DNA from: Bdellovibrionales bacterium
GTDB taxonomy: Bacteria; Bdellovibrionota; UBA1018
Length of the DNA: 64,000 nucleotides
Assembly (NCBI GenBank): GCA_947380295.1
Contig: CANCQK010000001.1
Location: forward strand, 210,144-274,143
Reading direction: 5' to 3'
The position numbers and the translations under genes were made by a program. Below are positions 1 through 32,174 of the stretch, piece by piece. The notes under the pieces were generated by a model. The model was not told the origin of the DNA. It saw only the letters and a list, made by a program, of their open reading frames with translations, and did no database searches. Position 1 is the stretch's first letter, and every line of letters starts with the position of its first letter.

Positions 1-1438
1 TAGGCGCCCTTAGTGAGTTGAGGGAACTGCGAAATTGTTTTTTGGCAAGTTTTTCTCTAGCCTGGGTATTAAAATAAAGTTGGGCAGAATGATTGAGATT
101 CAGAGTTGTTTCGTAGGCGCGATTAAATAAGGTCGCTTGGACTTCCTCTTTTTTGATTTTAAGTTCCTCGAGTTCTCCTTTGATTATTTTTGCCTGTGAG
201 AAAAGAGCCAATCCGAGAGCAGAACGGGAGTCGCCCGCCGGATCCATCCAGTTCAGGTAAAGCCAGGGCTTGCGCGTTTTCTGGGCCATGATGGTTAAGT
301 TCAATTGTGAAAGTTCAATTGATCTTCGGACTGCTTCTTGCCCTAGAAGTTTACCATCGAGTTCGAGCGCTGACTCTGGGAAAGTTGGGTTAGAAATGGT
401 GATGGATTGGATCGCCTCAGGGTTCAAAAATCCCAGAGCAAGCGAGAGTGCATAGCGAGTTTTTTCACGTGCCCAACTGACTTCTTCTTGGGTGTCTTGG
501 ATTGATTTGACGATCTGGTTGAGTCCCTTTGTGTCGACTTTTTCAGGTCTTAAATTGAACCGCATCTCTTGTGTGATTTTTAAGAAGCTTTGGCATTTTT
601 GAAGTATTCGCTCAGAGCGATTGTACTCATAAAACAGACTCTCGAGTGTGGCAATTAGATCGGCTTTGAAAATGGTCAAAGCCTTTTGTTGGACTTTAGC
701 CTCGAGTGATGACTGCCTCGCATTGAGCCACGAGGTGGGGAGCAAAAAAGGAGCTACATTCAGCATCAATAATGGAATCGAGGTAAAGCTCACTGAGGTG
801 TACCAAAGAATGTTGACATTAAGGTGGGGGAGTAAGTTGAGGTAGGCGGCAGTCGCTTGATGCCTCGCTTGCAGAGCCTTTTCAAAGTTTTCCCTCGAGT
901 CAAAGTTAAAGGCCATAGCACGCGCGATCGCGTCATCGAGGGAAATGGCAATGGGAGCTTCGAGCGGAGATGGGTCTTGGACTGCAAGGCTTCCGTAGAT
1001 ACTGTGCCTAGTTTGACTGGATTCAGACTGAGCCTCAAAATAGAAGCGATCATCTGTGAAGCAGAATAGAATGGCCCATGATCCCTCGTGATTGAAGCAA
1101 GCCTCTTGACTGAGTCTGTCGCGACTGGCTCGTTTTTTTAACAAAAAGGGCTGTGCTTGGATTTGAGGAACTTTAAGGGAGTAGGTCCAAATATCTACTT
1201 TTGAAACCTCAATGAGACTGATGAGGATTTGATTAGAGTCCTTAATGGAGATCGTCTTGAGGTGAGGCGAAGTGCGCTCGATTCTAATCCGCACGGGTTG
1301 AACCCGGCGTTCAGTGGGCGAGTCGGATTGTAAATTTCCCTCAAATTCTCCTCGGGGAACGTGACGGCAGGCGGTCGTAAAAATGACGAAAATAACGCAA
1401 CACGTTCGAATGAAAGTGATCCATTTTGTGTAGCTCAA
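1..1438 (-). CDS. Outer-membrane efflux protein, TolC/NodT family, probable lipoprotein. Partial: the 3' end lies beyond the left edge of the window. Not in the ORF track.
   Basis: Manual minus-strand translation gives a continuous frame from a TTG near 1436-1438 (preceded by an in-frame stop at 1445-1447) to position 1. The N-terminus LSYTKWITFIRTCCVIFVIFTTAC reads as a signal/lipobox-like sequence. Downstream text such as EVSWAREKTRYALSLALGFLNP..., LNLTIMAQKTRKPWLYLNWMDP... and KIKKEEVQATLFNRAYETTLNL is typical of the coiled-coil repeats of OMF/TolC proteins. The short + and - ORFs listed at 270-1069 fall inside it and are probably spurious. Confidence 0.6.
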   Translation of the reverse strand, partial: MSYTKWITFIRTCCVIFVIFTTACRHVPRGEFEGNLQSDSPTERRVQPVRIRIERTSPHLKTISIKDSNQILISLIEVSKVDIWTYSLKVPQIQAQPFLLKKRASRDRLSQEACFNHEGSWAILFCFTDDRFYFEAQSESSQTRHSIYGSLAVQDPSPLEAPIAISLDDAIARAMAFNFDSRENFEKALQARHQATAAYLNLLPHLNVNILWYTSVSFTSIPLLMLNVAPFLLPTSWLNARQSSLEAKVQQKALTIFKADLIATLESLFYEYNRSERILQKCQSFLKITQEMRFNLRPEKVDTKGLNQIVKSIQDTQEEVSWAREKTRYALSLALGFLNPEAIQSITISNPTFPESALELDGKLLGQEAVRRSIELSQLNLTIMAQKTRKPWLYLNWMDPAGDSRSALGLALFSQAKIIKGELEELKIKKEEVQATLFNRAYETTLNLNHSAQLYFNTQAREKLAKKQFRSSLNSLRAP

Positions 1439-1568
1439 AAGTAATTAGACGGGAAGTCTCCGTGGCGTTCACCGTGAGTTCCCATCCCCCCTTTATTGAG
1501 GTACTTGAATGGCAAGCGGCTGTCAAGGTGACCGTATAATCGAGAATAACGCAGAAGTAGAATTCAAA

Positions 1569-3005
1569 TTATTTGACCCGCTTCATTGGGACGAAGACTT
1601 TTTCATCTGGGCTTTTCTGAACATACAATACTGCAATTTCGTCTTTCTTCATTTGGTCAAATAATTCGGATAGTTCTTTGGCATTGTGGACTTCGCTTTG
1701 ATTCGCGCTGACGATGACATCCCCAACGGAGAGTCCCACATCAAAAGCAGGACTTCCGGGCTGAACCTCTGCGACGATAGCTCCTGTGTAGGGCGAGGCT
1801 TTGAGAAGTTTGGCCAGCTCAGGCGTCAAATCTTGCACTGCGATCCCCAGATTTCCGTGTGTTGCTGGACGCTGAGCGACATGAGCGGCTTGCCCGGCTT
1901 TTTGATTGCTGAGATCACTTTTGGCTTCGACTTGCTCTTGGACATAAATGGGGACTTGGAATGTCTTGCCATTTCGGCAGATGGAAACTCGAATTTCTTT
2001 TGAAACAGGCGCGTTTGCAACGAGTGATTTCAGTTGATTCGCAGAGTGAACCGCTTGATTGCCAAAGTGGGTAACTACATCGCCGCTTCTGAGTTTGGCT
2101 TTCGAGGCGGGCCCTCGGTTTTGAACCTGACTGATTAAAGCTCCGTCGGGACTTGGAGCTTTGAAATACTCAGCAAGCTGTGAGTCTAGATCTTGGGCAA
2201 TGACGCCGATCCACCCCCGAACTACATGGCCATGCTGCACGATTCCATCAAACACTTGTCTTGCGATTTGGGATGGAATCGCCAAACCCACACCTGTAAA
2301 TCCACCCGTTTGGGAAAAAATCGCAGTATTAATTCCGATAATTTCACCGTGAGAGTTCAGGAGAGGGCCACCCGAGTTGCCAGGGTTAATTGGGGCATCG
2401 GTTTGAATGAAATCTTCGATATCAAGCATCCCTAATTGCCCACGTCCCACTGCGCTAATAATGCCCGAAGTGACTGTGTGGTTCAGTCCAAATGGACTCC
2501 CGACTGCAATGATCCAATCGCCCACGTTGAGCTGGGCCGAGTTACCGAAGCTTAAAGTGGGAAGCGGGTTTTGGGGTGGATGGTCCAGTTGGAGAACGGC
2601 GAGATCCGTTTTTGAGTCACCTCCTCGAAGATGGGCCGCAGCCTTACGATTGTCATCAAAAACAATCGTGATTTTATCGGCATTCTGAACCACATGAAGG
2701 TTCGTGAGGATCAGTCCATCGGAGCGAATGATAACGCCTGATCCTAATCCTAGAGCGAATTGCTCTGCAAATTCGGGTGGGACTCCTCCTGGATTGCCTA
2801 GTGGGGCTGCGGGCATGAGTGGACTATGGACAGAAGTAATGCTGACAACAGCGGGAGTCGCATGCTTGGCGATCTGATTCAGCTCATGTGAAACCTGACT
2901 CAGAACTTCAACGCCATGAGTCGGTGCTGGAGTGGAGTGATTTGCAGCGCCCAAAGAAATTAAAGCAAGAGGCCAGATTAGGAGGCTTTTGAATTTCATC
3001 TGCAT
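1569..3005 (-). CDS. htrA: Periplasmic serine endoprotease, DegP/HtrA family (trypsin-like domain plus two PDZ domains)
   Basis: N-terminal signal peptide. Motifs GNSGGPL (catalytic Ser) and TNLHVV (His) are present, followed by two PDZ-like segments. Length 478 aa. Confidence 0.9.
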   Translation of the reverse strand: MQMKFKSLLIWPLALISLGAANHSTPAPTHGVEVLSQVSHELNQIAKHATPAVVSITSVHSPLMPAAPLGNPGGVPPEFAEQFALGLGSGVIIRSDGLILTNLHVVQNADKITIVFDDNRKAAAHLRGGDSKTDLAVLQLDHPPQNPLPTLSFGNSAQLNVGDWIIAVGSPFGLNHTVTSGIISAVGRGQLGMLDIEDFIQTDAPINPGNSGGPLLNSHGEIIGINTAIFSQTGGFTGVGLAIPSQIARQVFDGIVQHGHVVRGWIGVIAQDLDSQLAEYFKAPSPDGALISQVQNRGPASKAKLRSGDVVTHFGNQAVHSANQLKSLVANAPVSKEIRVSICRNGKTFQVPIYVQEQVEAKSDLSNQKAGQAAHVAQRPATHGNLGIAVQDLTPELAKLLKASPYTGAIVAEVQPGSPAFDVGLSVGDVIVSANQSEVHNAKELSELFDQMKKDEIAVLYVQKSPDEKVFVPMKRVK

Positions 3006-3155
3006 CTCCCTGCCGGTGGGTTCGTAAATGAGGTTAATCCAAATAGTGATGCAGGTGAGATGCCGAGAAAAAAGAACGGCCCATGATTTTAAAGAGACTG
3101 TTAGATTTTGGAAAGAGCTATAAAAGTTGCCAAAGTTGCTCTACTCTGAGGTCCT

Positions 3156-4865
3156 ATGATTTTATCGCCGAGCGATTCAAAGAGGATACGGTGCTGGTCA
3201 ATTCTTTTCGCATTGATTGTACTTTTAAGCGGGGTAGTTTTTCTGTTTTCTCCCCTGGGTTTTGTTCCCGTGCCATGGCCGGATGCTCCCCCGTTCTACC
3301 TTCCTTGGCGTGACTTAATTCAATGGCCACCGGTGTGGAGAATGGGCAATTACGCTGCTTTTGTTCCGAGTTTAGATCAGGTCAATTTTGGCACGATGCC
3401 TGGACTGACGATAGTTCTCGGGGGAATTTCCTCCCTGGGTCTCATGCATATTTTTAGTCCCACCGTGACTCTTAAACTCATCTGTTTGTTTGCTTTGATG
3501 AGCTGGGCATGGATGCTTTGGACATGGTTGATTCAATTGCCGTTATTTCGCGCAAGGCCCTACTTTGCGCTCATCATTTGCCTAGCTGCCTTATGGGATC
3601 CTACTTTGCGCTGGGTCACCTTAGCCGTAAGGCCTGAGGCATGGGTGGGGTTAATTTGGCTTTATATCCTCAAGGAACTCTGGAAAACTCACGTCAATTC
3701 GGAGCCACTCTCGAGTAAGACTCTCTGGATAGTCTCTGGAAGTCTAGCCCTTGCCGCTTACTTCCACTTTGATGCGATCGCTTTAGTGCCTGGAGTTGCG
3801 ATGATGCTGATGCCCAGCCCGGGCGAACGCTTTCTTCAGGTCTGGTTTCAGCGCCTTGTGGGGGTTGGTCTGCGGACGGTGTTGTTTCTGTCTCCGTGGC
3901 TGATCTATTGCCTTGTAAACTTTAAGCTTTTTTTGGAGCAAATTGGCGCTCAGTTCGGGCGACTTGCAATTCCTAATTGGGGATTTGAAGACGGACTTTT
4001 TTCTGCGCTTTTTATCGAGATGGGAAGTCCGGTTAATCTACCAAAGTTTTTTCGAATTTCGAGAGTTGCAATGTGGGTCATGATCTTTGTCATGACTGGT
4101 CGTATTCTCTATGAGGCAGTTAAAACCAAGATGCAGGGTGATCCACCCTGGGCGAGGCCGAAGTCCTTGTTTTTACTTTCGTTCGAACTCGGTGCAGGTC
4201 TTGTTTTTTGGTCAAGTTTCTATCAATGGTATTCGAAGCCAGAGGCTTGGTATGTGGGGCTTTGCCATTTTGTGTTTTGGCCCTGGCTCGTAGTTACGAT
4301 TGCCGCACTTCACGAAAAAACGCTAGAAAAATCAAGGCTCCCTAGCTTTCTGATCTTTTTTTCTGGGCTGTTTGCTCTAGGCGCGGTGAGTGCTTCAATA
4401 GTCCAGCTCAAGCAAATGCCTCCGAGCTATCGATGGCCTGTCTACGACGCGTGGGTAGATTGCATTGATCAAGAAATTCAATCCAAAGTTCGGAGTGAAA
4501 ACCCCAAGATTTGGCAAACCTTTCTTCCCGATGTTTTGGTTGACTTGGCTGTTAGGCATCCAAACTATGACGTCACCCGAGTCTTGGATTATCAAGATCT
4601 TGCAGAAAGAGCTTGGAGGTTTGCTCAAACGACTGATGCTATTATTCTCAGTAGTTACGTAGATGACTCACGACACGATGGTATGCAGGAGTTTACTCAA
4701 TACAGTGGGCCTTATCGGCCTGATTATTCCCACTTTTATGGTTATGTTCCTTTCGGCGATCGAGTCTTACGTGAACTTTTTCCTGAAAATTGGGATACAA
4801 AAATCTGCCACTTTGGCAATTTTTGGGCTTCCGTAGTGACTCGGCGATCGAGTAGTCGGCGCTAA
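3156..4865 (+). CDS. Polytopic integral membrane protein of unknown function (possibly a GT-C-type glycosyltransferase)
   Basis: 569 aa with at least 10 hydrophobic helices and Trp/Phe-rich loops. No soluble catalytic motif recognised. Confidence 0.45.
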   Translation: MILSPSDSKRIRCWSILFALIVLLSGVVFLFSPLGFVPVPWPDAPPFYLPWRDLIQWPPVWRMGNYAAFVPSLDQVNFGTMPGLTIVLGGISSLGLMHIFSPTVTLKLICLFALMSWAWMLWTWLIQLPLFRARPYFALIICLAALWDPTLRWVTLAVRPEAWVGLIWLYILKELWKTHVNSEPLSSKTLWIVSGSLALAAYFHFDAIALVPGVAMMLMPSPGERFLQVWFQRLVGVGLRTVLFLSPWLIYCLVNFKLFLEQIGAQFGRLAIPNWGFEDGLFSALFIEMGSPVNLPKFFRISRVAMWVMIFVMTGRILYEAVKTKMQGDPPWARPKSLFLLSFELGAGLVFWSSFYQWYSKPEAWYVGLCHFVFWPWLVVTIAALHEKTLEKSRLPSFLIFFSGLFALGAVSASIVQLKQMPPSYRWPVYDAWVDCIDQEIQSKVRSENPKIWQTFLPDVLVDLAVRHPNYDVTRVLDYQDLAERAWRFAQTTDAIILSSYVDDSRHDGMQEFTQYSGPYRPDYSHFYGYVPFGDRVLRELFPENWDTKICHFGNFWASVVTRRSSSRR

Positions 4866-4874
4866 GGAAATGTG

Positions 4875-7049
4875 TTAATGGGCTTGGTACCTGATCAAAA
4901 ACCAGTCTCCATTCTTCCATGTGCGCTCCGGTTGATAACCATTTTGTGTTAAAAGATTGTTCACTTGATGGTTCGGGAATTCTACATTTGAATAGAGTAA
5001 AAATCCCCCCTGAAATCTGAGATGATCGTGCCAGCGTTTAAAGTAGACTGCTTGTCGTTTCGGGGAGAGGATTTTAAATTGAACGAATGGGGCAAGCGGC
5101 AACCACAGGCGTGAAACTCGTGGGTCCTGAGAAGGTAAAATAAGAAGATGGTGGCCTAGGTATGCGATTGGGTCCGTCGATTTGACGCTCGCGATACGCA
5201 GGAGTTCTTCTGCCTCCTTGGGAAGTTCAGGATTTCTAACTGAACGGAGCTCACCCTTTAAGTTGAAGAAGTAAGAAATTTTTTCCTGTAAGACCTTGTT
5301 CAAAACTTTCGGTTTATTCAAGACTAGAAAAAGAGGGATGAGTAAGGCAGGGACAAAGGATGCCCATCTGAGGCTGTTCTTAATTTGAAAAGGCTGATCA
5401 AGAGCAGCTACATTGATGAGGAGACAAAAGAAGTGAATGGGTAATAAATTGAGGGCATTATTGTCATGAGTTCGTGTCGCGTAGTAACTGAGGGTCGACC
5501 AGAATAAACAGAGGGAAGCAGTTGCAATAGCCTTGCGCGATTTGGACTCATTTTCAATGAATGCTTTTACTAGGAATGTTGCGAGTGCGATGAATTCGAG
5601 TCCAACAAACCAAATTGTTCCTTTGCTGCTAGAAGGGTGGGCTCCAAAACCTTTGCTGTAGGCGAGCGCATATTCAAAAAAGCCTGACCAGTCTGGCCAA
5701 TGCCCAAGTGAGATCTGATAAAAAACCGAAATTCCAAGGAGCACTGTGAGAAATGCTAGAAATGGGGGAGCAAAAATTTTGGTGAATCGAGATAGGGTAA
5801 GAATTTTCTTTGAGTTCCAGGACAATAAAAAGTAGGCGGGGAACCATGTGATAGTGCAGTAAACAGCACTCTCTGCGGACCAGAGTACGCCGATCAACCA
5901 GACGGCGTGACCTAAGATGATCCATGGTTTCTGCTTCGAGTCGTTATCTTTTCCCTTTGTAGAAAAAAAGATTACTGCGACTAGGAGTTCGGCAAAAATG
6001 AAACGAAACGGCCCAACACTAGGGTAGGCCATGGGTCCGGTTAAATCCTGAAGCCATCCTGGGCAAAAATAAACTAATGCCAAAGTAGAAGGAACACCAA
6101 TAATTCTACCCAAAGTAGACTTAAATACGTTCCCCCACACTAAATAAAATAGACTAGCTGCAATCAGGTAAAAAATAATGAGGAGAAGATGAAGGTTTAA
6201 GTAGCTGTCGCCCCATGGCAACAGGGCCAGCAGAGTGATGTTCAGTAGTCCGTACTGGCTTGGAACGTCATAGAGCAGCCAGCCCCCTGCCCGGATGAGC
6301 TCAGCTGGGCCTGTGTAAAAACTCCAGTGATGGGCAGGGCTTTCGCCCCCTGGAATTTCTTTCATAAGGGCTAGTAATGACACGATCAAAGTAGACCAGA
6401 GGACCCCATGGACGAGGCGACTTTTGGAAATGGGATGATTGCTTAACCCAATTTCCATTCGCAGAGTTTGTGTGAGAATGAGTAAGAGTGGTATCGAGAT
6501 CAATAAGCTGCCGAGACTCAGCGGGAATTTACTCGAATCAAGTTCGAGCCAGAATGCAAGTCTTGCAGCGAATAGCCACATCGAAGAAAGAAAAATCAGT
6601 CCGTAAATCCGATTCTTGGTGCTGAATTGAACTTTTGGCAAAAGTGCGAGCTGGATCGAAGCAAAAAGCAGAGAAACTAAGTAGCTTTGCCATGAACCAA
6701 GTCGGAGCGCTAACTTCAGTAAAATGAGGCTCGACACTATAGAAACAGCTGAGTGTAGTGTCGGTCGTTTTACACGTAAGAGTGATGGGATTTTGGATTT
6801 TAAAAAAAACAATAGAGGAGGAATGGAAAGTAGGCTGAGGTAGATCATATGATCTCTCTGTTTGACTTCCAGTGAGCTCGTGGCTTTGCCCCATAGGACA
6901 ATCCATGCGAATAGTCCCGCTACTTGGATCAGATCATTTTGAATGCCGAAAGCCTCTTCTTTGTCTTTAGTCATAGATTTCATGAGTGCGAGTGGGTGGG
7001 TAGCTTTGCTCTTAAGAGACTGTTGCAGATATAAAAAGAGATTGTGCAA
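4875..7049 (-). CDS. Large polytopic integral membrane protein of unknown function (possibly a GT-C-type glycosyltransferase)
   Basis: 724 aa, many transmembrane helices in the N-terminal two thirds and a soluble C-terminal third. Its start overlaps the 3' end of the downstream methyltransferase gene by 38 nt. Confidence 0.45.
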   Translation of the reverse strand: MHNLFLYLQQSLKSKATHPLALMKSMTKDKEEAFGIQNDLIQVAGLFAWIVLWGKATSSLEVKQRDHMIYLSLLSIPPLLFFLKSKIPSLLRVKRPTLHSAVSIVSSLILLKLALRLGSWQSYLVSLLFASIQLALLPKVQFSTKNRIYGLIFLSSMWLFAARLAFWLELDSSKFPLSLGSLLISIPLLLILTQTLRMEIGLSNHPISKSRLVHGVLWSTLIVSLLALMKEIPGGESPAHHWSFYTGPAELIRAGGWLLYDVPSQYGLLNITLLALLPWGDSYLNLHLLLIIFYLIAASLFYLVWGNVFKSTLGRIIGVPSTLALVYFCPGWLQDLTGPMAYPSVGPFRFIFAELLVAVIFFSTKGKDNDSKQKPWIILGHAVWLIGVLWSAESAVYCTITWFPAYFLLSWNSKKILTLSRFTKIFAPPFLAFLTVLLGISVFYQISLGHWPDWSGFFEYALAYSKGFGAHPSSSKGTIWFVGLEFIALATFLVKAFIENESKSRKAIATASLCLFWSTLSYYATRTHDNNALNLLPIHFFCLLINVAALDQPFQIKNSLRWASFVPALLIPLFLVLNKPKVLNKVLQEKISYFFNLKGELRSVRNPELPKEAEELLRIASVKSTDPIAYLGHHLLILPSQDPRVSRLWLPLAPFVQFKILSPKRQAVYFKRWHDHLRFQGGFLLYSNVEFPNHQVNNLLTQNGYQPERTWKNGDWFLIRYQAH

Positions 7050-7731
7050 ATCGGTCGGGCCCAGGAAGCTTTTCTAGACAATCACCGGTTGCAATTACCG
7101 CGTTGATGAGCGAGGTCGGTGTATTCGGAAGCAGGAAGTCTCGATACTCCACGACAACATCAGAAAATCCATTATCTTTCAGTTTTTTGGCAATAAATCT
7201 ACGAGTAAATGCCATTTCGTCGGGCTCTAATTTTGCTCGCTTTCTTAAGGGAGCGAACGAGAAAATCAAAAAACAGTAAGGATTCAGAAGGTTGGGCTCA
7301 AGAAATACAATTCGGCCATTCGGTTTACATAATTGCTTAAAGCGTTGGAGCGATGCATCTAGATTGTAGTAGAGGTGGTGCAGTATTCCGTTCCCAACAA
7401 TCGAGTCAAATTTTCCGATCCTTGAGAACTCACTCTCATTCGTCGAGTTAAAATCAAAAACGTCGTAGGATAGTTTTGGGTGCTTAAACTGCTTTCGCGC
7501 TTCTTCTATAAAAGGTTTACAGATGTCTGTTCCCACGACTTCAACATTCCCTTTGGAGGCTAATAGTGCGGAGATTTCACCGGTTCCGCAGCCGATCTCA
7601 AGCACTCGGCCACCTTCTTTGAGGTTTGATTTGTCGAGGATATATTGGCACCTGCGCTCGGTTCGAACTTTGAGTGCCGGTGAGGGTTTAAAGCCCTGAT
7701 TGTATCCTCGATCATCTTGAATGCTTGCCAT
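7012..7731 (-). CDS. Class I SAM-dependent methyltransferase
   Basis: Motif I VLEIGCGTGEIS, followed by an acidic D and the rest of a Rossmann-like MTase core. 239 aa. Confidence 0.8.
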   Translation of the reverse strand: MASIQDDRGYNQGFKPSPALKVRTERRCQYILDKSNLKEGGRVLEIGCGTGEISALLASKGNVEVVGTDICKPFIEEARKQFKHPKLSYDVFDFNSTNESEFSRIGKFDSIVGNGILHHLYYNLDASLQRFKQLCKPNGRIVFLEPNLLNPYCFLIFSFAPLRKRAKLEPDEMAFTRRFIAKKLKDNGFSDVVVEYRDFLLPNTPTSLINAVIATGDCLEKLPGPDRFAQSLFISATVS

Positions 7732-7742
7732 TGCCTTGCTCC

Positions 7743-9761
7743 CTATTTTTTTGCGCTACTGCGGGTGATGTAGGTCTGAATGCCTTGCTCTCCCGTGTAC
7801 ACTTCTCCCGCTGCGAATAAGTGACTTCGAATGAAACGGGGTCGGTTTTTGACTTCGTCTAGGATTTTACCGATGTAGTCTCCTAATATACTGAGACTGA
7901 TGAGTTGTGCTCCGCCTAATACGAGAGTCAGTAGAATAATCGTAGTTGCTCCTCGGGCATTTTGTGGAGGTTGAATAAAGTAGGCAACCGCATAGAAGAC
8001 ACTGAGCAAACAACTGACTAGAAAAATAAGCACTCCGAATCTCTGAATATAATCGAGTGGCTTAGTGCTGTATGAAAAAATCCCTTTTTTAGCCCACCAG
8101 ATATTTTTCCAGAAATTATTTGTGGTTCGGCCGAACATTCGTTCTGGCCGGTGGTAAGGCACGCCTTCTTGTTTGAAACCCACCCAAGCTCGCAGACCCC
8201 TCAGGAAGATATCTTTCTCTGGAAATTTGAGCAGGTGGTTGACTACTTTGCGGTCAATGAGTGAGAAGTCCCCTGCATCAACTGGAATTTCGAAATCAGC
8301 CAGATGTTTAAAGACTCGATAAAAGAGCTTATAAAGAATCTGCATATGCAGATCCGCTTGGCGCCTGACTCTTTTTCCATAAACAATGTCTGCGCCGGCG
8401 ATCCACTTTTTGTAAAATTCTTCGATGAGTTCTGGCGGATCTTGGAGGTCACCATCGAGTAAAACGATCCCATCGCCCGAGGATACCTCCATTCCACTGA
8501 AGAAAGCGGATTGGGAGCCAAAATTTCTGGAATGAGAAATACCGATGACGTGAGAGTCCTTTTGGGCAATATCCCAGATAACTTTTTCGTCAGAGGTAGG
8601 GCTACAGTCGTTCACGAAGATGATTTCGTAGTTCACTCCGGTCTTCTGAAAGACTGTGCTAAGTCGCTCGTACATGATTGGGATGGCCTGGTGATCCCGA
8701 TAGCAAGCAATGATCGCTGAGATTTTTTTAGCAGGCTTTTGTGCAACCGCGAACTGAACCTTTTCTGCTGCGCTCCTCTCCCATTCAATGGTGTACTTAA
8801 GTCCAGTTTCAAGAGGCGTGCGTGCTTTCCACTGGAGTTTTTCGAACGCAAGCGAGGGGTTTCCATACCAATTACTAAGGTCCCATTTACGGTTGGTCAT
8901 TTCACCAAAATTTGGGTCGGTAGGGAGTTGAAAAAGTTCTTTCGATAAATATGCAATCTGTTCGAGAGATGTTTTTTTCCCTGTTGCAATGTTAATTGAA
9001 ATTCCTCGGTCTTCTGGATTCTGGCAGACAGTGAGTGCCGACTTGACGATCGCATGGGTGCAGTCGTCGACATAGACGAAGTCCCTTGAGATCGATCGGT
9101 CGGCAAAGGGAGGGTAGTGTCCTTGTAGTCCCTTTGAGATGAGGTTTGGAACGAGTCGATCTCGCTCTTCCCATGGACCATAAATGGAATAAAGCCTAAG
9201 ATTGACGCAAGGGAATTGATGAAACTTACCGTAATATTGAATCAGATGGGAGGCAGCCGCCTTAGAGACAGCGTAGTCACTGTTGGGAATGAGCTGATCC
9301 GTCTCCTTTGGGGCTGTGCAATTTAAACCGTATTCAGATGAACTGCCTGTTTGAACATAAGAATGACACCCAGTTTCCATGAGTGCTAAAATGAGATTAA
9401 GACTCCCTAAATAGTTGACCTGGTGGATCGTCTGAGCTGTCTTTTGTCGTTCGTAAGCACCGAAGGCAGAGAGATTGAAAACTGTCCTCGGGCGAAGTTT
9501 CGAAATTACGTTTTTGACCGCTGTTTCGTCTGTCACATCCAAGGAAATGAGCTTGGATGGATCGGCATAAGCGAGTCGCCAGCTCTTTTGAGGGGATCGC
9601 GAAACGGCAAAAACATCATCTCTTCGTGCCGAAAGGCTGTAAAAAAGCTTTGCTCCGATGAATCCAGAAGCTCCGACTACGAAAATGGGACCCTCAAGGG
9701 AGCGTGCTAGGGACTCTTCGTGGGGTGTCCAAGTATCAGAAAAAATAATCGAAGACTTCAT
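7743..9761 (-). CDS. Fusion protein: N-terminal NAD-dependent sugar epimerase/dehydratase (SDR) domain plus C-terminal GT2 polyprenyl-phosphate glycosyltransferase (ArnC/GtrB-like) with C-terminal TM helices
   Basis: N-terminal VVGASGFIGAKL Rossmann motif and a YAVSK catalytic Tyr-x3-Lys. C-terminal IIACYRD...NDCSPT...LLDGDLQDPPE is a GT2 DXD-type core with two C-terminal hydrophobic helices, as in ArnC/DPM synthases. The track ORF extends to 9881. The start at 9761 (MKSSII) is preferred because it lies 8 nt after the upstream stop. Confidence 0.7.
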   Translation of the reverse strand: MKSSIIFSDTWTPHEESLARSLEGPIFVVGASGFIGAKLFYSLSARRDDVFAVSRSPQKSWRLAYADPSKLISLDVTDETAVKNVISKLRPRTVFNLSAFGAYERQKTAQTIHQVNYLGSLNLILALMETGCHSYVQTGSSSEYGLNCTAPKETDQLIPNSDYAVSKAAASHLIQYYGKFHQFPCVNLRLYSIYGPWEERDRLVPNLISKGLQGHYPPFADRSISRDFVYVDDCTHAIVKSALTVCQNPEDRGISINIATGKKTSLEQIAYLSKELFQLPTDPNFGEMTNRKWDLSNWYGNPSLAFEKLQWKARTPLETGLKYTIEWERSAAEKVQFAVAQKPAKKISAIIACYRDHQAIPIMYERLSTVFQKTGVNYEIIFVNDCSPTSDEKVIWDIAQKDSHVIGISHSRNFGSQSAFFSGMEVSSGDGIVLLDGDLQDPPELIEEFYKKWIAGADIVYGKRVRRQADLHMQILYKLFYRVFKHLADFEIPVDAGDFSLIDRKVVNHLLKFPEKDIFLRGLRAWVGFKQEGVPYHRPERMFGRTTNNFWKNIWWAKKGIFSYSTKPLDYIQRFGVLIFLVSCLLSVFYAVAYFIQPPQNARGATTIILLTLVLGGAQLISLSILGDYIGKILDEVKNRPRFIRSHLFAAGEVYTGEQGIQTYITRSSAKK

Positions 9762-9769
9762 AGAGTCAC

Positions 9770-10687
9770 TCACAAGAAAAGTTCCGAAAGGGTGGTATGG
9801 ATTGAAGCGCTGTCGAGGTGACTGAGCTTTTGGTGGTAGGATTGACTTCCGTAGAGGCCATTGGGATACCCCTGAGCACATAGATTGCGAGTCTTAGCAT
9901 GAACTCCATTTTTCATGAGCAACAGTGCAAGGTGCTCGGCAAGTCCACCTCTTTGAACGTGCTCTTCAACAATCAGGAGGCGGCCAGTTCTTTTGACTTC
10001 ATCCACAAACTCTGAGGTGAGCTGAGCTAAAGGTAACTCTGAAACTCCGTAGACAGATGAGTGAGGTACGCCTTCTTGTGAGCGACGTTCGAGTTCTGCC
10101 TTTAAAACATTTTGAATCACAGGACCCAGGCCAAGTACGACGGCTTCGCCTCCTGATAAAATTTTTCTAAATCCACTCGGAGTGGGAGCTGGAATCGTAG
10201 GTGGCCAGGCTCCTGCTCCCAGTCTTAGGTACGAGGGCCCAGCGTAAGACATCATGGATTCAGCATTTGAAAAGAGATCTTCGTTGCAGAGAGGAACGAA
10301 ACACTTCATATTCGGCAGGCTCGATAAACAAGCAAGATCCTCAAGTGCGTGATGGGTTGCACCCATCACCCCGTACCCGTACCCGCCTCCATTACCGATA
10401 ATTTTGACATTCATGTTGTGAATGCAAACATCCAGGCGAATCTGCTCTAGTGGTCTAAAAACAGCAAACGGCGCGATACTATAGCAGATCGGAAGAAGGC
10501 CTTGCGATGCAAGTCCAGCTGCAAGTCCAATCATGTTTTGTTCACTCACGCCGACATTGACGAACCGCTTTCCTGCGGCTTTTGCCACACCCTCAAAGGC
10601 TTGGAAGCCCAGGTCGCCCGTTAAGAAAACGATCTGAGGATTTTCTGAGACTTTTTGTTCTAGCCACTGAGAAAATTCTTTACGCAT
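9770..10687 (-). CDS. Transketolase, C-terminal (pyrimidine-binding) subunit of a split two-gene transketolase
   Basis: 305 aa with transketolase Pyr/C-terminal domain patterns (GPSY, IGNGGGYGYGVMGATHH-like region). Its start overlaps the stop of the upstream subunit gene. Confidence 0.8.
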   Translation of the reverse strand: MRKEFSQWLEQKVSENPQIVFLTGDLGFQAFEGVAKAAGKRFVNVGVSEQNMIGLAAGLASQGLLPICYSIAPFAVFRPLEQIRLDVCIHNMNVKIIGNGGGYGYGVMGATHHALEDLACLSSLPNMKCFVPLCNEDLFSNAESMMSYAGPSYLRLGAGAWPPTIPAPTPSGFRKILSGGEAVVLGLGPVIQNVLKAELERRSQEGVPHSSVYGVSELPLAQLTSEFVDEVKRTGRLLIVEEHVQRGGLAEHLALLLMKNGVHAKTRNLCAQGYPNGLYGSQSYHQKLSHLDSASIHTTLSELFL

Positions 10688-11525
10688 CGCGCCCTCGGAT
10701 TTCTTTGAGAGCTGCTTCGTATTGCTGATCGTTCATGGGAAGGTAGTGCCACTGGAATTGATTTTCCATAAACGATACCCCCGCGCCTTTACACGTGCGG
10801 GCAATTAAACAGATGGGCTTGTTGCTGGAGCGTTCTTGAATCTGTAGGAATGCGTCAGCAATTTGTTGAAAATCATTTCCGTCTTGAATCACACAGGTTT
10901 CAAAATTAAAAGACTTCCACTTATCTTCAAAAGGTTCGAGGTCCAAAATATCATGTGTTGACCCGAGACCTTGGAGACCGTTCGCATCGACGATGACTAC
11001 TAAATTTTGAAGGCGATGGTGTCCGGCAAAAAGGGCTGCTTCCCAAGTTGACCCCTCATTACATTCCCCGTCCGAGAGGACGCAGAAAATCTTTTTTTCG
11101 CCAAGCGTTGGTTGAGACGACGAGCCAAATCGCTGGGCAAATGCCATTCCTGTGGCTAAGGAAAGCCCATGCCCTAAGCTGCCTGTGCCAAACGGAATGG
11201 CTGGTATTTTTCCGCTGCAAGGGGGGTGGGCAGCCAACTTGGTGCCATCTTTGTAAAAGGTGTCCAGATCTTCGTTCAGTAGGCCAAATTGAGACAAAGT
11301 GACATAGAGGGCCCCAGCAGCATGACCTTTGGAGAGCACGAGCTGGTCTCCTCGGCTTGAATCGATCTCTTTGCTGTAGAGGTAGAGGAGAATGTCAAGG
11401 CAGGACAAAGAGGATCCAATGTGACCCGCATTGGCCTTTTTATAAAGAGCCAAAAGGAGCTCAGTTGACCCACGTTTGAGCAGTTTAAAGTCTTGTTCTG
11501 TATGAACGGTTCGAACCTGATTCAT
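10680..11525 (-). CDS. Transketolase, N-terminal (thiamine-diphosphate-binding) subunit of the split transketolase
   Basis: 281 aa. GHIGSSLS and LSKGHAAGALY motifs, plus a GDG...NEGS ThDP-binding region. Confidence 0.8.
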   Translation of the reverse strand: MNQVRTVHTEQDFKLLKRGSTELLLALYKKANAGHIGSSLSCLDILLYLYSKEIDSSRGDQLVLSKGHAAGALYVTLSQFGLLNEDLDTFYKDGTKLAAHPPCSGKIPAIPFGTGSLGHGLSLATGMAFAQRFGSSSQPTLGEKKIFCVLSDGECNEGSTWEAALFAGHHRLQNLVVIVDANGLQGLGSTHDILDLEPFEDKWKSFNFETCVIQDGNDFQQIADAFLQIQERSSNKPICLIARTCKGAGVSFMENQFQWHYLPMNDQQYEAALKEIRGRDA

Positions 11526-11722: not shown

Positions 11723-13453
11723 ATGGGAGAGTCAGTGCTTAATCGTGATGGACTTTGGAAAAAGGCGATTAGTGTGAGTGTTTTGATTGGGTTGAGCGCA
11801 CTGTGTGCCTTGATCTGGTGCTTTGGCTTTGATTTAAATTGGATTGAGCGCCTTCGATATCCTCTTACCTTGTCTGGTGACGGGCTTTTTACGGTGGCTT
11901 TCATTCAATCGATGATTGACGGGGACTGGTTACCTTTCTTTGGGATCAAAAGTTCTCGTTTAGCAGCACCGTTTGGGTTTAATCTGGCTGACTTCCCCTC
12001 TACTGATGGGGTCTTTCACTTTTTGTTTTGGCTCGTATCCCGATTTTCGAAGGATCCGATGTGGGTTTTGGACTTTACTTATCTTCTGTCGTTCCCACTC
12101 TGCGCATTAACAATGTACTGGCTGCTTCGTTGGAATTCTGTTAGCCGATTTTTGAGTGTTTTTTTGTCTTTACTCTTTGCTCTACTTCCATTTCATTTCA
12201 CACGACATGATCACATTTACTATGCTCTTTATTTTAATGTTCCGCTTGCATGTGGATACTTAATTCAACTCTGGAAGCGCGCAAGCGACAAAAGTCGCCC
12301 TGTTTTTAGCTGGCAGGATGTGCTTTTTTTGTTTTTCTTTGCGGGCTGCGGATTCTATCAAAGTTACTTTCTGATTTTCTCGTTGTTTCTTATTTTTATC
12401 TGCTGGTTTGAGCGAGGCAAAAACTCATCCGAGAGACTGATTCAAGTTTGTGGGTTTCCGTTGGTCTGTTTACTGGCGTTTCTGATCATTCACCTATTAC
12501 CGACTTGGCTTTTTTGGTTTAAATTTGGCGGCAATACGGGACTATCGAGTCGACATTCTGGGGATGTTGAAAGGTATGCACTTAAGTTGATTAACTTATT
12601 TCTTCCTCCTAACGATTCTTTCATTCGGCCCTTGGGGTGGGCGAGTAGTCGATACACGAGCGGCACAGAGATTGTTGAAGGATTCAAGGAGACGATGGGA
12701 CTTTTCGGTTTTGGGGGTCTCACTGTACTGATGGTGAAGTTTTTGAGAGGGGGGCAGAATAAGTCTCAGGTGACCTATTTTTTAGGCTTGATGGTGATTG
12801 GAATGGTACTCTTCACCACGATTGGGGGCTTTGGAAGTATTGTTGCTAAGTTTGGATTCAGTAGATTTAGATCTCTGAACCGGATTAGTGTTTGGATCAT
12901 TTGTCTCACTTATCTTTTTATCGGTCTTCATCTTGAGGAATTTTTAAGGAGGGGAAGAAGCTGGCGCACCCGCGTCTGTCTCAGTCTCCTCTTGGCTTTT
13001 GCGCTTCTTGAGTTGGCCCCAAGTCAGGGTAGATTTTCATCGCTTGCTGGTTTATCCAGTTTCACAAGTGATCAGGATTTTTTTGCCGCGGTCGAATCTA
13101 AGTTGCCTCGTGGGGCGAGCGTGCTTCAGCTCCCATTCGCACCATTTCCTGAAATTGGTCCGATTTATGGGATGTCAGACTATGAGCATCTCAGGGGCAT
13201 CGTATTTACGAAGGAGTTGAAATTTTCCTACGGTGTTTTTAAGGGGCGTCCTGAGCTTGATCAGATTCGTAGTCTGAGCGAGCCTTTGCTGAATATAGAA
13301 AAAGTCAAAGCGTTAGGTTTTAGTGCAATTTATATTGATGTAGCCGGGTTTCCTGATGGCGCGTTTGAATTGACGACCCAGATGAGCATTTCCAACATTT
13401 TTCGTGAGAAAATTCAGAGTAAAGACCTCCGGCGTGTAGCCTTTATATTTTAG
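11723..13453 (+). CDS. Polytopic integral membrane protein of unknown function (possibly a GT-C-type glycosyltransferase)
   Basis: 576 aa, about 12 TM helices then a soluble C-terminal domain. Transcribed divergently from the transketolase operon. Confidence 0.45.
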   Translation: MGESVLNRDGLWKKAISVSVLIGLSALCALIWCFGFDLNWIERLRYPLTLSGDGLFTVAFIQSMIDGDWLPFFGIKSSRLAAPFGFNLADFPSTDGVFHFLFWLVSRFSKDPMWVLDFTYLLSFPLCALTMYWLLRWNSVSRFLSVFLSLLFALLPFHFTRHDHIYYALYFNVPLACGYLIQLWKRASDKSRPVFSWQDVLFLFFFAGCGFYQSYFLIFSLFLIFICWFERGKNSSERLIQVCGFPLVCLLAFLIIHLLPTWLFWFKFGGNTGLSSRHSGDVERYALKLINLFLPPNDSFIRPLGWASSRYTSGTEIVEGFKETMGLFGFGGLTVLMVKFLRGGQNKSQVTYFLGLMVIGMVLFTTIGGFGSIVAKFGFSRFRSLNRISVWIICLTYLFIGLHLEEFLRRGRSWRTRVCLSLLLAFALLELAPSQGRFSSLAGLSSFTSDQDFFAAVESKLPRGASVLQLPFAPFPEIGPIYGMSDYEHLRGIVFTKELKFSYGVFKGRPELDQIRSLSEPLLNIEKVKALGFSAIYIDVAGFPDGAFELTTQMSISNIFREKIQSKDLRRVAFIF

Positions 13454-13473
13454 ACGAGATTGCGGTGGTGCGC

Positions 13474-14367
13474 CTACCAGCCTGAGCTAAGTCCAGAAAA
13501 GTTGAGGAGCGACCGGAGGTACTGGCCGTAACCCGATTTTGCAAGGGGTGCAGCCAGCTGGGCGAGTTTCTCGTCAGTAATCCAACGTTGCCGCCACGCG
13601 ATTTCCTCGGGGCACGAAATTTTGAACCCCTGACGGTGTTCGATGGTTGCAATAAAGTGGGAAGCTTCGAGCATGGATTCGTGGGTCCCGGTATCGAGCC
13701 AAGCAAAACCCCTGCTGAGGATTTGTACTTGAAGTTTTCCAGCGTGGAGGTAATGGCGATTAACATCTGTGATTTCGTATTCGCCGCGGCTAGATGGCTT
13801 GATCTCTTTAGCGAATTGGACGACATCACTGTCATAAAAGTAAAGGCCTGTGACGGCGTAGCGGGACTTTGGATGTGTCGGTTTTTCTTCGAGGGACACC
13901 GCTTTGCCATTCTTATCAAATTCGACGACGCCGTATCGCTCTGGGTCTTTCACTGGATAGGCAAAGACACAGGCATTTGCGCCGTCATTATGAGCATTCG
14001 CAAGAATTGCCTTGAAGTTATGACCATAAAAAATATTATCCCCAAGAACGAGTGCACTCGGGGAGTTTCCTAAAAATTTTTCACCAATCACGAACGCCTG
14101 GGCAAGGCCGTTGGGTTCCGCTTGAACCGCATAACTGAGGGAAATTCCCCATTGACTACCATCGCCCAAAAGTTGTTCGAAACGGGGAGTGTCCAAAGGG
14201 GTTGAGATGATCAAAATATCACGAATCCCCGCGAGCATGAGAGTGCTGAGAGGGTAGTAGATCATCGGTTTATCGTAAACTGGAAGCAATTGCTTCGAAA
14301 TGGCCAGCGTCGCTGGGTGTAGGCGGGTTCCAGAACCTCCTGCTAAAATAATGCCTTTGCGCTTCAT
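13474..14367 (-). CDS. rfbA: Glucose-1-phosphate thymidylyltransferase
   Basis: [20 protein letters not shown] signature. The start at 14367 forms an ATGA overlap with the rfbB stop. The track ORF extends 22 codons further upstream. Confidence 0.9.
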
Positions 14368-15428
14368 GATTGAGCCTCGTAGTGTTGGTTGATCCACTCG
14401 CGATAAGCACCGCTTTGGACATTTTTGACCCAATCGGGATGATCTAGATACCAGTGTACAGTCTTTCGTATTCCTGTCTCAAAAGTTTCTTTCGGTTTCC
14501 ACCCGAGGTCTCGTTCAATCTTACTTGCATCCATGGCATACCGTCGGTCGTGCCCTGGTCGGTCGGCAACATGGGTAATTTGTGCGGAGTAGCTGGTACC
14601 ATCACTCTTGGGCTTGAACTGATCTAAAAGAGAACAGATGGTCCGCACAATTTCTAGATTGGCTTTTTCGTTCCATCCGCCAATATTATAGGTTTCGCCA
14701 GGTTGCCCACTTTCAAGAACGCGACGGATGGCGGTGCAGTGATCATTTACGAAGAGCCAGTCTCTGATTTGCTGGCCATCGCCGTAGATCGGGAGTGGTT
14801 TGCCGGCGAGAGCATTGACAATCATCAAGGGGATGAGCTTTTCAGGGAAATGAAATGGGCCGTAATTATTGCTACAGTTGGTCGTGAGCACTGGCAGACC
14901 GAACGTGTGGTGCCAGGCCCGGACGAGATGATCGCTGGCTGCCTTGCTCGCGCTATAGGGGCTGTTAGGCTGGTAGGCAGTGGTTTCAGTGAAGGGTGGA
15001 TCAGTTTTGGAAAGCGTGCCGAAGACCTCATCCGTGCTGACGTGCAAAAATCGGAACTGAGACCGTTCTTCCTGCCCAAGAGAGCGCCAAAACGCGCAGG
15101 CTGACTCTAATAATCGGAACGTGCCGACAATGTTGGTTTGAATGAAATCTTCAGGACCATGAATGGACCGATCCACATGACTTTCTGCCGCAAAGTGTAG
15201 AATTGCACGAGGTCGGTATTGGCTCAAAAGTTGGCTGACCAGCTCTCGATTTCCCAGGTCCCCTTGGATAAAAATGTGTCTTGAGTCGTTCCGGAGCGAG
15301 GCAAGGTTTTCTAGGTTGCCTGCATAGGTGAGCTGATCGAGATTAACAATGGGTTCACTGGAGTTCTCCAGCCAATCCAATACAAAGTTGCTTCCAATAA
15401 ATCCCGCTCCACCCGTAACAAGCAGCAT
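14364..15428 (-). CDS. rfbB: dTDP-glucose 4,6-dehydratase
   Basis: [15 protein letters not shown]ossmann motif and a YSASKAASD catalytic motif. Start at the internal Met at 15428 is preferred; the track ORF starts at 15596. Confidence 0.9.
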
Positions 15429-15462
15429 TTTCGCTCCTTTGGTCTGTTTTGTGCGAGGACGG

Positions 15463-15960
15463 TTAAGCTCCGCAGCACTTTTTGAATTTCTTACCACTCC
15501 CACAGCTGCAAGGGTCGTTGCGGCCCGTTTTAGGCTCTGGGCGACGGTAGGTACCCGTTTGGACGCCCTGTGCATCCAGAAATTTCCACTGGCCATTTTC
15601 CTTTTCGAAAAAGCTCTTTTCCAGGTGTTCTTCTTTTTTTCCGTCCTGGGAATAGTAGGCGCCGAAGATAATCGTGCCCTGGGTGTCGTCTTTTTGTCCT
15701 GCCTCAGCTTGAAAAATCTTCAAGCCGAGCCATTTTGAGTTTTTAGACCAGTCGTCAATCTCGTCTCGTTTCACTTCAGCGAGCGTTTTCGAGTGATGAG
15801 TAGACAGAATGTAGTCGACATCTCCCCGGGTGAACGCTGTATATCGAGAGCGGAGGAGTTGCTCGGCAGTTTGAGCAGTCCCGTTTCCCTTGATCAGGGG
15901 AAGACAGCAATTTTCAAGTTGAATACCAGAACCACAGGCGCATAGATTTGTTTCGGACAT
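15463..15960 (-). CDS. ychJ: YchJ-family protein (UPF0225, SEC-C metal-binding motif)
   Basis: N-terminal CACGSG and C-terminal [18 protein letters not shown]-like motifs. 165 aa. Confidence 0.65.
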
Positions 15961-15997
15961 GGAGGTATGGTATCCAAAATAATTCTGAAGAGGTCAA

Positions 15998-16330
15998 GTG
16001 TTTATGGAAGCTGAATACCGAAAGAGAATTCAAACCGTTTTGAGTCGTATTGAGAAAGCATTTACCGATGTGGATCCTGACGTTGCAGAGTGCGAGCAGT
16101 CCTTGGGGTCGCTCACGATTACCTTGGCAGATGGCTCTCGTTGCATTTTAAGTTCACAACCCTCGGTACAGCAGCTTTGGTTGGCTTTGGCCGCTCGCGG
16201 AACCGCATACCATTTTAATTTTGACTCGACCCGGCAGGCCTGGATGGATGATAAGGGTCAAAATATTGAGGTTTTGTCGTTTTTAACCTCCTATTTACAA
16301 GAGACAACTGGATTGAGGATCGAGCTATGA
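15998..16330 (+). CDS. cyaY: Frataxin-like iron-binding protein CyaY
   Basis: 110 aa. The pattern EYRKRIQTVLSRIEKAF...LTITLADGSRCILSSQPSVQQLWLA...YHF matches the CyaY/frataxin fold. Confidence 0.7.
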   Translation: MFMEAEYRKRIQTVLSRIEKAFTDVDPDVAECEQSLGSLTITLADGSRCILSSQPSVQQLWLALAARGTAYHFNFDSTRQAWMDDKGQNIEVLSFLTSYLQETTGLRIEL

Positions 16331-32167: not shown

Positions 32168-32174
32168 TGTCTGA

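Follow-up and report, generated by a model that had tools for sequence, protein, structure and literature searches.

Which sugar is handled by a protein that joins a nucleotide-sugar oxidoreductase to an enzyme loading sugars onto a lipid carrier? The question is raised by a gene at positions 7743–9761 (minus strand) of a 64,000 nucleotide stretch of DNA from a Bdellovibrionales bacterium (assembly GCA_947380295.1, contig CANCQK010000001.1), the whole of which is referred to here as the window. The gene encodes a single polypeptide in which a short-chain dehydrogenase/reductase (SDR) acting on nucleotide sugars is joined to a polyprenyl-phosphate glycosyltransferase of family 2 (GT2), and it forms a cassette with genes for a split transketolase and an S-adenosylmethionine (SAM)-dependent methyltransferase. 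The reading favoured here, which is given an even chance of being correct, is that the cassette makes a transketolase-modified, methylated sugar that is loaded on undecaprenyl phosphate for transfer in the periplasm by a GT-C glycosyltransferase. An initial annotation of the window, made from the sequence alone, had instead seen an unusual architecture within a pathway resembling that of ArnA, ArnC and ArnT.

The fusion gene and its distribution

The fusion is encoded by an uninterrupted open reading frame (ORF) of 672 amino acids (aa). The minus-strand frame is free of stops from 7743 to 9881 and, as the upstream gene stops at 9770, the ATG at 9761 is a sensible start; this is the start first annotated, and the same 672 aa protein was predicted independently on a public contig of identical sequence. 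Pfam searches recovered both of the families named in the initial annotation, Epimerase (PF01370; residues 26–244, E 1.6e-39) and Glycos_transf_2 (PF00535; residues 348–510, E 4.4e-23), with GDP_Man_Dehyd spanning residues 27–322 and a linker of approximately 12 residues separating the two halves. On the basis of Pfam, solved relatives and residue conservation, the extended-SDR nucleotide-sugar oxidoreductase domain occupies residues ~24–335 (8757–9692, minus strand), and includes the motifs GASGFIG (residues 30–36) and YAVSK (163–167) by which it was originally recognised. The second domain, a GtrB-type polyisoprenyl-phosphate glycosyltransferase (PI-GT), extends over residues ~346–650 (7812–8726, minus strand) in an alignment to GtrB (5EKP). 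The C-terminal transmembrane helices already suspected are represented by two hydrophobic segments in a hydropathy scan, at residues ~571–593 and ~604–630 (7872–8051, minus strand), which align with the transmembrane region of GtrB.

The description of an SDR domain joined to a GT2 in one ORF therefore stands, as the frame is continuous and both Pfam domains lie within the 672 aa. A frameshift or two-gene artefact is ruled out by this continuous frame together with hundreds of independent two-domain homologues. That two genes were fused by an error of sequencing or assembly has a probability small enough to be neglected, given that the identical protein is encoded on independent assemblies and the same two-domain protein on hundreds of independent contigs.

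The supposed rarity of the architecture does not survive a wider search. When a collection of 5.8 billion proteins was searched for homologues, all of the best 120 matches, which were the ones examined, were found to be two-domain proteins of 660–687 aa with 59–79% identity to the fusion, and they come from Verrucomicrobiota, Kiritimatiellia, Bacteroidota, Lentisphaerota and a metagenome-assembled genome of Moranbacteria, with Opitutaceae, Lacunisphaera, Victivallales and Candidatus Moranbacteria among the source names. With more than 120 full-length homologues spread across phyla, the fusion is neither a frameshift artefact nor rare. An alignment of 30 diverse homologues has a mean column identity of 70%, and at least 562 related stretches came up in a scan of metagenomes. 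Full-text searches of the literature turned up analogies only, and no description of the cassette; the fusion architecture is unstudied rather than rare.

The cassette is also present in a cultured organism, Methylobacterium aquaticum MA-22A, where plasmid pMaq22A_1p (808.9–814.9 kb; locus L089) encodes both transketolase subunits, a fusion 46% identical to that of the window and a methyltransferase, the same neighbours as in the window. This region bears no annotation in the table of the plasmid collection. Megaplasmids of Roseibium, Labrenzia, Ensifer and Sinorhizobium carry, side by side, a gene annotated as 'NAD(P)-dependent oxidoreductase' and another annotated as 'glycosyltransferase family 2', which resemble the respective halves of the fusion with 26–29% identity. 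Judged by this similarity, such gene pairs may represent a more remotely related form of the system that is not fused.

Association with a split transketolase and a methyltransferase

In the window, the fusion is the third gene of a minus-strand operon in which successive genes are separated by gaps or overlaps of no more than 28 nt. It is preceded by genes for the two halves of a transketolase: TK-N, the subunit with the thiamine diphosphate (ThDP)-binding PP domain (10680–11525, minus strand; 281 aa; Pfam Transketolase_N), and TK-C, the subunit with the Pyr domain (9770–10687, minus strand; 305 aa; Pfam Transket_pyr), the genes of which overlap by 8 nt. It is followed by a class I SAM-dependent methyltransferase gene (7012–7731, minus strand; 239 aa; Pfam Methyltransf_12/31/23/25/11) and then by the gene for a 702 aa membrane protein. 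The Pfam matches agree with the initial identification of the methyltransferase and of the split transketolase. A scan for promoters and terminators gave no signal above background.

The constancy of this arrangement was assessed in 86 other loci, of which 53 are independent and have at least 2.3 kb of upstream sequence. A tblastn-based count found both transketolase halves in 51 of these 53 and one half in the other two, such that no locus is without transketolase. The arrangement itself is flexible. In five loci (L015, L031, L038, L064 and L076) the fusion lies between the TK-N and TK-C genes. In four unfused modules (L080, L081, L083 and L087), a separate GT2 of ~313 aa, 57–60% identical to the GT2 half of the fusion, is encoded directly after TK-N and a short, 166 aa TK-C. 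The unfused GT2 is thus still preceded by both subunits in L080 and L087, while the gene order in L081 is SDR, TK-N, TK-C, GT2 (1827–4938), the lone SDR carrying the signatures WRL, SSSEYG and RxWD in common with the fusion. The linkage in all 53 loci, along with the interposed gene orders, speaks for a role of the transketolase in one short pathway with the fusion.

A class I SAM methyltransferase is encoded downstream of the fusion in most loci, and falls into three diverged subfamilies that are represented in 25, 32 and 19 loci; in L005, the fusion is followed by a methyltransferase of a fourth kind. In L008, the gene for a B12-binding radical SAM enzyme (12132–13544) separates the fusion from the methyltransferase, which hints at an extra, possibly C-methylating, tailoring step in some variants. 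The closest solved methyltransferases are generic, and give no pointer to the site of methylation.

Both the transketolase and the methyltransferase had been treated as scenery in the initial annotation, but the linkage counts make them constant partners of the fusion, and any mechanism must therefore be built around them. As judged from these sequence comparisons, the split transketolase, the SDR, the GtrB-type GT2 and the SAM methyltransferase probably constitute a widespread donor-synthesis module for periplasmic glycosylation.

The glycosyltransferase half

The GT2 half aligns with GtrB, the polyisoprenyl-phosphate glucosyltransferase of Synechocystis (5EKP), with a score of 216 bits over chain residues 27–330 of 341. 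The alignment is unbroken, and the GT-A domain, the juxtamembrane region, both transmembrane helices and the C-terminal segment of GtrB are all present. Among other solved structures, ArnC scores 131 bits and an archaeal DPMS 52 bits. The best NCBIfam model is that of PgfS (NF047588), at 236.5 bits against a cut-off of 500, and the ArnC equivalog NF007986 gives 136 bits against a cut-off of 529; as both cut-offs are missed, the GT2 half belongs to neither equivalog. The assignment in the initial annotation to a polyprenyl-phosphate GT2 is accordingly retained, but the likeness to ArnC and DPM gives way to GtrB, which is the better match.

The key residues of GtrB are D94, D96, R122, D157 and R200, with D157 the putative catalytic acid and R122 and R200 the arginines of the acceptor and donor sites (PMC4728340). 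Mapping these by hand on the 5EKP alignment, assuming an offset of +23 in the chain numbering, identifies D436 and D438 (the DXD motif), R464, D498 and R541 as their equivalents in the fusion, and all five are invariant in the 30 diverse homologues. On these sequence criteria the GT2 half is a GtrB-type PI-GT, predicted to transfer a sugar to undecaprenyl phosphate. Phage GtrB genes match this half only, with 37–40% identity, and no phage record covers the whole fusion.

The oxidoreductase half

The SDR half carries the GxxGxxG motif (G30/G33/G36), the S140/Y163/K167 triad, an SSxEYG motif, R226 and R291-x-W-D. Little or no variation is seen at G30, G33, G36, S140, Y163, K167, R226 and R291 across 69 fusion homologues, and the same holds in the alignment of 30 diverse homologues. 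R226 (RDF) and R291 (RxWD) correspond in alignment to RD(Y/F) and RxGD, two motifs of GalE-type enzymes, and by analogy with GalE are presumed to contact the nucleotide phosphates. The near invariance of these arginines and of the triad is consistent with a nucleoside diphosphate (NDP)-sugar substrate.

The closest solved relatives are all distant, and comprise the UDP-glucuronate 4-epimerase MoeE5 (82 bits), GalE-type epimerases (73 bits) and the GDP-4-keto-6-deoxymannose reductase Rmd (68 bits). Decarboxylases of this superfamily have the catalytic motif T-S-E, and 4,6-dehydratases T-D-E. In the fusion, the motif preceding the conserved YG is (S/T)-S-S-E, one residue shorter than that of the decarboxylases, and alignment to solved SDRs places Ser141 and Ser142 at the Asp/Glu positions of the 4,6-dehydratases and a serine at the Glu position of the decarboxylases. 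The dTDP-glucose 4,6-dehydratase model TIGR01181 is matched at 84 bits against a cut-off of 365, and no decarboxylase model is among the 25 best NCBIfam matches of the fusion. The SDR half is hence best described, from its aligned residues, as an extended nucleotide-sugar oxidoreductase apparently without the acidic residues of a decarboxylase or dehydratase.

These observations bear directly on the proposal of an Arn-like pathway, in which the SDR would decarboxylate UDP-glucuronate supplied by Ugd, the GT2 would load the resulting pentose and a GT-C enzyme would add it to lipid A. The general logic, by which an SDR modifies a sugar, a GT2 loads it on undecaprenyl phosphate and a GT-C protein transfers it in the periplasm, is shared by the two systems and is kept here. 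The specific form of the proposal is very unlikely. A gene for UDP-glucose 6-dehydrogenase (Ugd; 16576–18027) is indeed found ~7 kb from the fusion, but Ugd adjoins the cassette essentially never in the flanks of related loci; the decarboxylase-like gene that had been paired with it encodes an unassigned extended SDR (17970–18959) scoring 74 bits with the C-terminal model of ArnA, far below the cut-off of 777, and is likewise not conserved with the fusion. Similarly, the GT2 half does match ArnC, at 131–136 bits, but is outscored by GtrB and PgfS, and the equivalog cut-off is widely missed. ArnT is the top structural match of the 702 aa membrane protein and a strong match of the 569 aa membrane protein described below. 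Against this, the SDR half has serine at the decarboxylase Glu position and epimerases and Rmd as its best solved relatives, the genes of the cluster that were scanned include no aminotransferase, formyltransferase or deformylase, and the invariant transketolase and methyltransferase would be left without a role. Nothing among the tests run points to lipid A as the target.

A second alternative takes its cue from the closest solved relatives of the SDR. MoeE5 and the GalE-type enzymes are 4-epimerases, and the PgfS model is the best NCBIfam match of the GT2 half (236 bits), so the fusion might consist of an NAD+-retaining 4-epimerase feeding the PI-GT, with the transketolase and methyltransferase serving other reactions, such as the modification of a different precursor or of the glycan after transfer. 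The Pgf system of Streptococcus mutans is a model for this, as it combines an extended SDR, the epimerase PgfE, with the GtrB-like PI-GT PgfS and two large membrane glycosyltransferases, PgfM1 and PgfM2, in one operon. The mycobacterial proteins PpgS, GalE1 and Rv3779 form a comparable system of PI-GT, SDR and membrane glycosyltransferase. The cassette differs from Pgf in that SDR and GT2 are one polypeptide, the PgfS cut-off is missed, transketolase and methyltransferase are partners, and the SDR has features in common with the ketoreductase Rmd. In particular, Glu143, directly before YG, is invariant and common to Rmd, whereas epimerases have valine at this position, and the conserved acidic residue after strand beta-2 expected of an epimerase was not found. 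These features, and the transketolase linkage in 53 of 53 loci, including those in which the fusion lies between the transketolase halves, make a simple epimerase and loader an unlikely explanation.

In the SDR of the window, strand beta-2 is followed by Ser-Arg, as in Rmd, where NAD+-retaining epimerases have aspartate. An assignment as an NADPH-dependent reductase from this feature was lowered to a hint, as the motif is not kept in the wider family.

The active site of the transketolase

The best relatives of the two subunits in the Protein Data Bank (PDB) belong to the split transketolase of Carboxydothermus hydrogenoformans, with 6YAK matching TK-N at 172 bits and 6YAJ matching TK-C at 119 bits. 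Four active-site histidines of TK-N are kept in 60 of 60 homologues, and the Mg-binding Asp and Asn are also kept. The ThDP motif is SDG, rather than the canonical GDG, in 58 of 60 TK-N homologues (L001–L088); a non-canonical CDG motif is present in JanthE, another ketone-accepting ThDP enzyme (PMC12247030).

In TK-C, the cofactor-activating Glu and a neighbouring His are invariant (62/62). The substitutions are found close to this conserved histidine, where relative to 6YAK a serine is replaced by glycine in 62 of 62 sequences, a histidine by glycine in 62 of 62 and an aspartate by methionine in 52 of 62. These three positions are taken to be equivalent to S385, H461 and D469 of the Escherichia coli transketolase, residues that contact the phosphate of the sugar and the hydroxyl of the acceptor. 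The presence of Gly, Gly and Met at the equated positions of the acceptor pocket would indicate a non-canonical, bulky acceptor, whereas every cofactor and donor residue that was checked is retained. From this pattern we infer that the cassette transketolase would be catalytically competent and would retain its ketol donor, with an acceptor site that is larger and less polar than usual.

Small or hydrophobic residues at these positions would also suit a third alternative, in which the order of events is reversed: the GT2 would load a common sugar, which the SDR would oxidise, much as DprE1/DprE2 act on a lipid-linked sugar, and the transketolase and methyltransferase would then modify on the lipid carrier, before flipping. 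A cytoplasmic GalE-like SDR acting on an undecaprenyl-phosphate-linked pentofuranose, which it epimerises from ribofuranose to xylofuranose, provides a precedent (PMC11127046), the fusion to a membrane enzyme would hold the SDR at the membrane, and the cassettes in L005 and L008 are minimal, further nucleotide-sugar genes being absent within 10 kb. However, the SDR retains the arginines that bind the nucleotide diphosphate in NDP-sugar enzymes, neither transketolase nor methyltransferase has predicted membrane segments, and the stand-alone SDR of L081 is encoded apart from the GT2. Modification on the lipid is therefore also considered improbable, to much the same degree as the epimerase-based scheme.

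Membrane proteins near the cassette

A large membrane protein (at least 450 aa, with at least eight transmembrane segments) is encoded within 9 kb of the cassette in 39 of 48 loci with long flanks, and some of these proteins carry a PMT_2 domain. Three polytopic membrane proteins of the window had been described as GT-C-like in the initial annotation, and they fare differently. The 569 aa protein (3156–4865, plus strand), encoded convergently with the operon, is confidently predicted to have a GT-C fold. Its AlphaFold2 model (AF2; mean predicted local distance difference test, pLDDT, 72; predicted TM-score, pTM, 0.78) has nine best Foldseek matches in the PDB that are all GT-C proteins, with a probability of 1.00, among them DPY19, AglB, ArnT, STT3 and Pmt4; the TM-scores with ArnT are 0.49/0.52. 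The first transmembrane helix is followed by an invariant PVPWPD motif, in which D43 is invariant, although the loop has a low pLDDT. This is a small family, consisting of eight homologue clusters in a word-indexed search of the 5.8 billion proteins. The 569 aa and 702 aa proteins are encoded by adjoining genes in the closest related locus, L004.

The 702 aa protein (4875–6983, minus strand), encoded by the last gene of the operon, is a probable GT-C glycosyltransferase according to its model (pLDDT 78.5, pTM 0.84; 27 homologues). The only membrane proteins matched with high probability by Foldseek in the PDB are ArnT (1.00), PglB (0.99), AftB (0.99) and ALG3 (0.98); small soluble methyltransferases also reach 0.8–0.94, in short partial alignments. 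Pfam at E ≤ 10 and NCBIfam gave no family assignment for the membrane proteins, and a PDB profile search gave none for the families of the 702 aa and 576 aa proteins. The third, of 576 aa (11723–13453, plus strand), is encoded divergently from the operon; it has 4358 representatives at E ≤ 1e-3, a large family, and is left unassigned. Comparison of the three membrane-protein families by hhalign detected no profile similarity among them. In L005 (GCA_037025285.1), the cassette is flanked by seven proteins of 697–1278 aa, encoded at 1–8152 and 13030–21352, which have almost no Pfam assignment and a single weak PMT_2 match.

The proposed pathway

In the pathway that we infer, from the substrate and the order of the SDR and transketolase steps through the branch chemistry and methylation site to the flippase and acceptor, the starting material would be a nucleotide-activated keto sugar at the cytoplasmic face. 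This sugar could arise by SDR oxidation of a common NDP-sugar, or be received ready-made from RmlB or Gmd. Genes for RmlA, glucose-1-phosphate thymidylyltransferase (13474–14367, minus strand; TIGR01207, 510 bits against a cut-off of 361), and RmlB, dTDP-glucose 4,6-dehydratase (14364–15503, minus strand; TIGR01181, 499 bits against a cut-off of 365), are immediate neighbours of the cluster and were missed in the initial annotation. RmlA is a possible source of precursor, and the 4-keto-6-deoxy product of RmlB, which in the window would be dTDP-4-keto-6-deoxyglucose, could be the acceptor of the transketolase. The split transketolase would attach a hydroxyacetyl (ketol) unit, two carbons long, at the carbonyl carbon, such that the modification is probably a hydroxyacetyl branch; the SDR domain would carry out the accompanying redox step, and the methyltransferase would add a methyl group. 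The fused GtrB-type domain would then move the finished sugar from the nucleotide to undecaprenyl phosphate and, after flipping, GT-C proteins would pass it on to a glycan of the cell surface, for which the lipopolysaccharide (LPS) or O-polysaccharide encoded 10–25 kb away is the most plausible candidate. The domain identities, the conserved catalytic residues, the fusion and the gene linkage are observations on which this general scheme is built, and any one specific chemistry is less probable than the scheme as a whole.

The chemistry has a parallel in antibiotic biosynthesis. In the miharamycin and amipurimycin pathways, a keto sugar made by a preceding oxidoreductase has been proposed to receive a hydroxyacetyl unit from a split-gene transketolase (PMC12247030), and there as here the transketolase is encoded together with an oxidoreductase that makes or handles a keto sugar. 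Those transketolases belong to antibiotic clusters of Streptomycetes, and according to a 2025 review, proposals that a transketolase branches a keto sugar are confined to a few such Streptomyces antibiotics; the 13 further putative sequences from a bioinformatic survey cited there are all from Streptomycetes, with none characterised in vitro (PMC12247030). The cassette is set apart by its lipid-carrier glycosyltransferase, its location in envelope loci and its occurrence in many phyla.

Several observations weigh against this interpretation. RmlA and RmlB adjoin the cassette in only ~5 of 86 related loci, and hence the precursor is not defined by them. The reaction of a transketolase with a keto sugar has never been shown in vitro, the Streptomyces precedents included (PMC12247030), and no biochemically characterised member of the cassette was found in the literature. 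The site after strand beta-2, which in the window resembles that of Rmd, is variable across the 69 homologues, with only W61-R62 invariant there. The TM-scores of the 702 aa protein with GT-C structures are only ~0.3, for which reason its assignment is probable rather than certain, and the 576 aa protein has no sequence match in Pfam, NCBIfam or the PDB. Finally, a dedicated flippase gene, as would stand beside the PI-GT and GT-C genes in a three-component system, was not found by a scan for small ORFs, there being no GtrA-like ORF (80–200 aa, with at least three hydrophobic segments) in the whole 64 kb window.

Comparison with known systems

The three-component GtrA/GtrB/GtrC system for glucosylation of O-antigens resembles the cassette in several respects: the GT2 half is a full-length homologue of GtrB, genes of GT-C type adjoin the cassette, and GtrA is encoded in seven related loci. 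The cassette differs by the N-terminal fusion to an SDR, the constant split transketolase and the usual methyltransferase, and its sugar is probably not glucose.

Branching of an LPS sugar by a ThDP enzyme is known from YerE and YerF, which act in the synthesis of yersiniose, erwiniose and caryophyllose, and in which a carbon branch is likewise added to an NDP-4-keto-deoxy sugar; YerF is an NADPH reductase acting on the branch carbonyl after YerE. However, YerE belongs to the decarboxylase superfamily rather than being a transketolase, and its product passes to cytoplasmic Leloir glycosyltransferases, not to undecaprenyl phosphate through a fused PI-GT. The pentofuranose systems, namely those of Citrobacter youngae O1 and O2 and DprE1/DprE2, share with the cassette a lipid-linked monosaccharide donor and an auxiliary SDR that alters the sugar, and in C. 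youngae O1/O2 a GT-C enzyme performs the post-polymerisation glycosylation. By contrast with the cassette, they start from phosphoribosyl pyrophosphate with a polyprenyl phosphoribose synthase, employ a MATE flippase and are without transketolase or methyltransferase. The branched sugars of Coxiella, virenose and dihydrohydroxystreptose, were also considered as a comparison but dropped, as a literature search gave no paper that pairs a transketolase with them.

As far as these analogies extend, the transketolase appears to be without counterpart in the Gtr, Arn, Pgf or pentofuranose systems. Periplasmic glycosylation by such systems ranks among the main origins of diversity in surface antigens and of resistance to antibiotics and phages, and every characterised lipid-linked monosaccharide system known to us uses as donor either a common sugar or one with simple modifications. 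The cassette would couple a ThDP-dependent enzyme forming C–C bonds to the lipid-loading step, and it is ~60% identical between phyla and abundant in metagenomes. More tentatively, and at less than even probability, it may represent the first transketolase-dependent pathway for branching or chain extension of primary cell-envelope glycans, yielding hydroxyacetyl-branched or two-carbon-extended, methylated sugars linked to undecaprenyl phosphate, for addition to surface glycans by GT-C enzymes, in many phyla. If so, a previously undescribed sugar would be widespread in the envelopes of environmental bacteria, and the cassette would provide the first tractable system for ketone-accepting transketolase chemistry, made testable by the cultured Methylobacterium carrier, as well as enzymes for tertiary-alcohol synthesis and glycoengineering.

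Surrounding genes

Beyond Ugd and the extended SDR, the window encodes GalE (18926–19948) and an EpmA-like protein, a lysine aminoacylase of elongation factor P. The ORF of the latter (19998–21275) comprises 425 aa, of which the family model matches only residues ~100–420, and translation probably begins at a codon inside the listed frame.

A tRNA-Thr(CGU) gene at 23131–23206 is directly followed by a fall in GC content, from ~0.50 to 0.38–0.43 at 24–28 kb. This segment, which contains glycosyltransferase and acyltransferase genes, looks like a horizontally acquired island: it encodes a GT87-family GT-C protein (25251–26501) and acyltransferases of the AT3 family (26594–27670 and 27796–29847, the latter with an SGNH domain). 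It overlaps the start of an LPS/O-polysaccharide region (24175–40754), which is likely to be the acceptor pathway of the cassette. Also encoded in this region are the GDP-fucose synthase Fcl (24175–25146), Gmd (29991–31094), several enzymes of families GT2, GT4 and GT11, an MsbA-like ABC protein (35085–36896) and a WaaL-like O-antigen ligase (39534–40754).

Other genes in the window encode YchJ, CyaY and glutaredoxin, in addition to EpmA; with an ankyrin-repeat protein, this gene content would suggest a gammaproteobacterium resembling the Legionellales. Downstream of the LPS region lies the gene for a 734 aa ankyrin-repeat protein (43061–45265), a type of protein common in amoeba-associated or intracellular bacteria.

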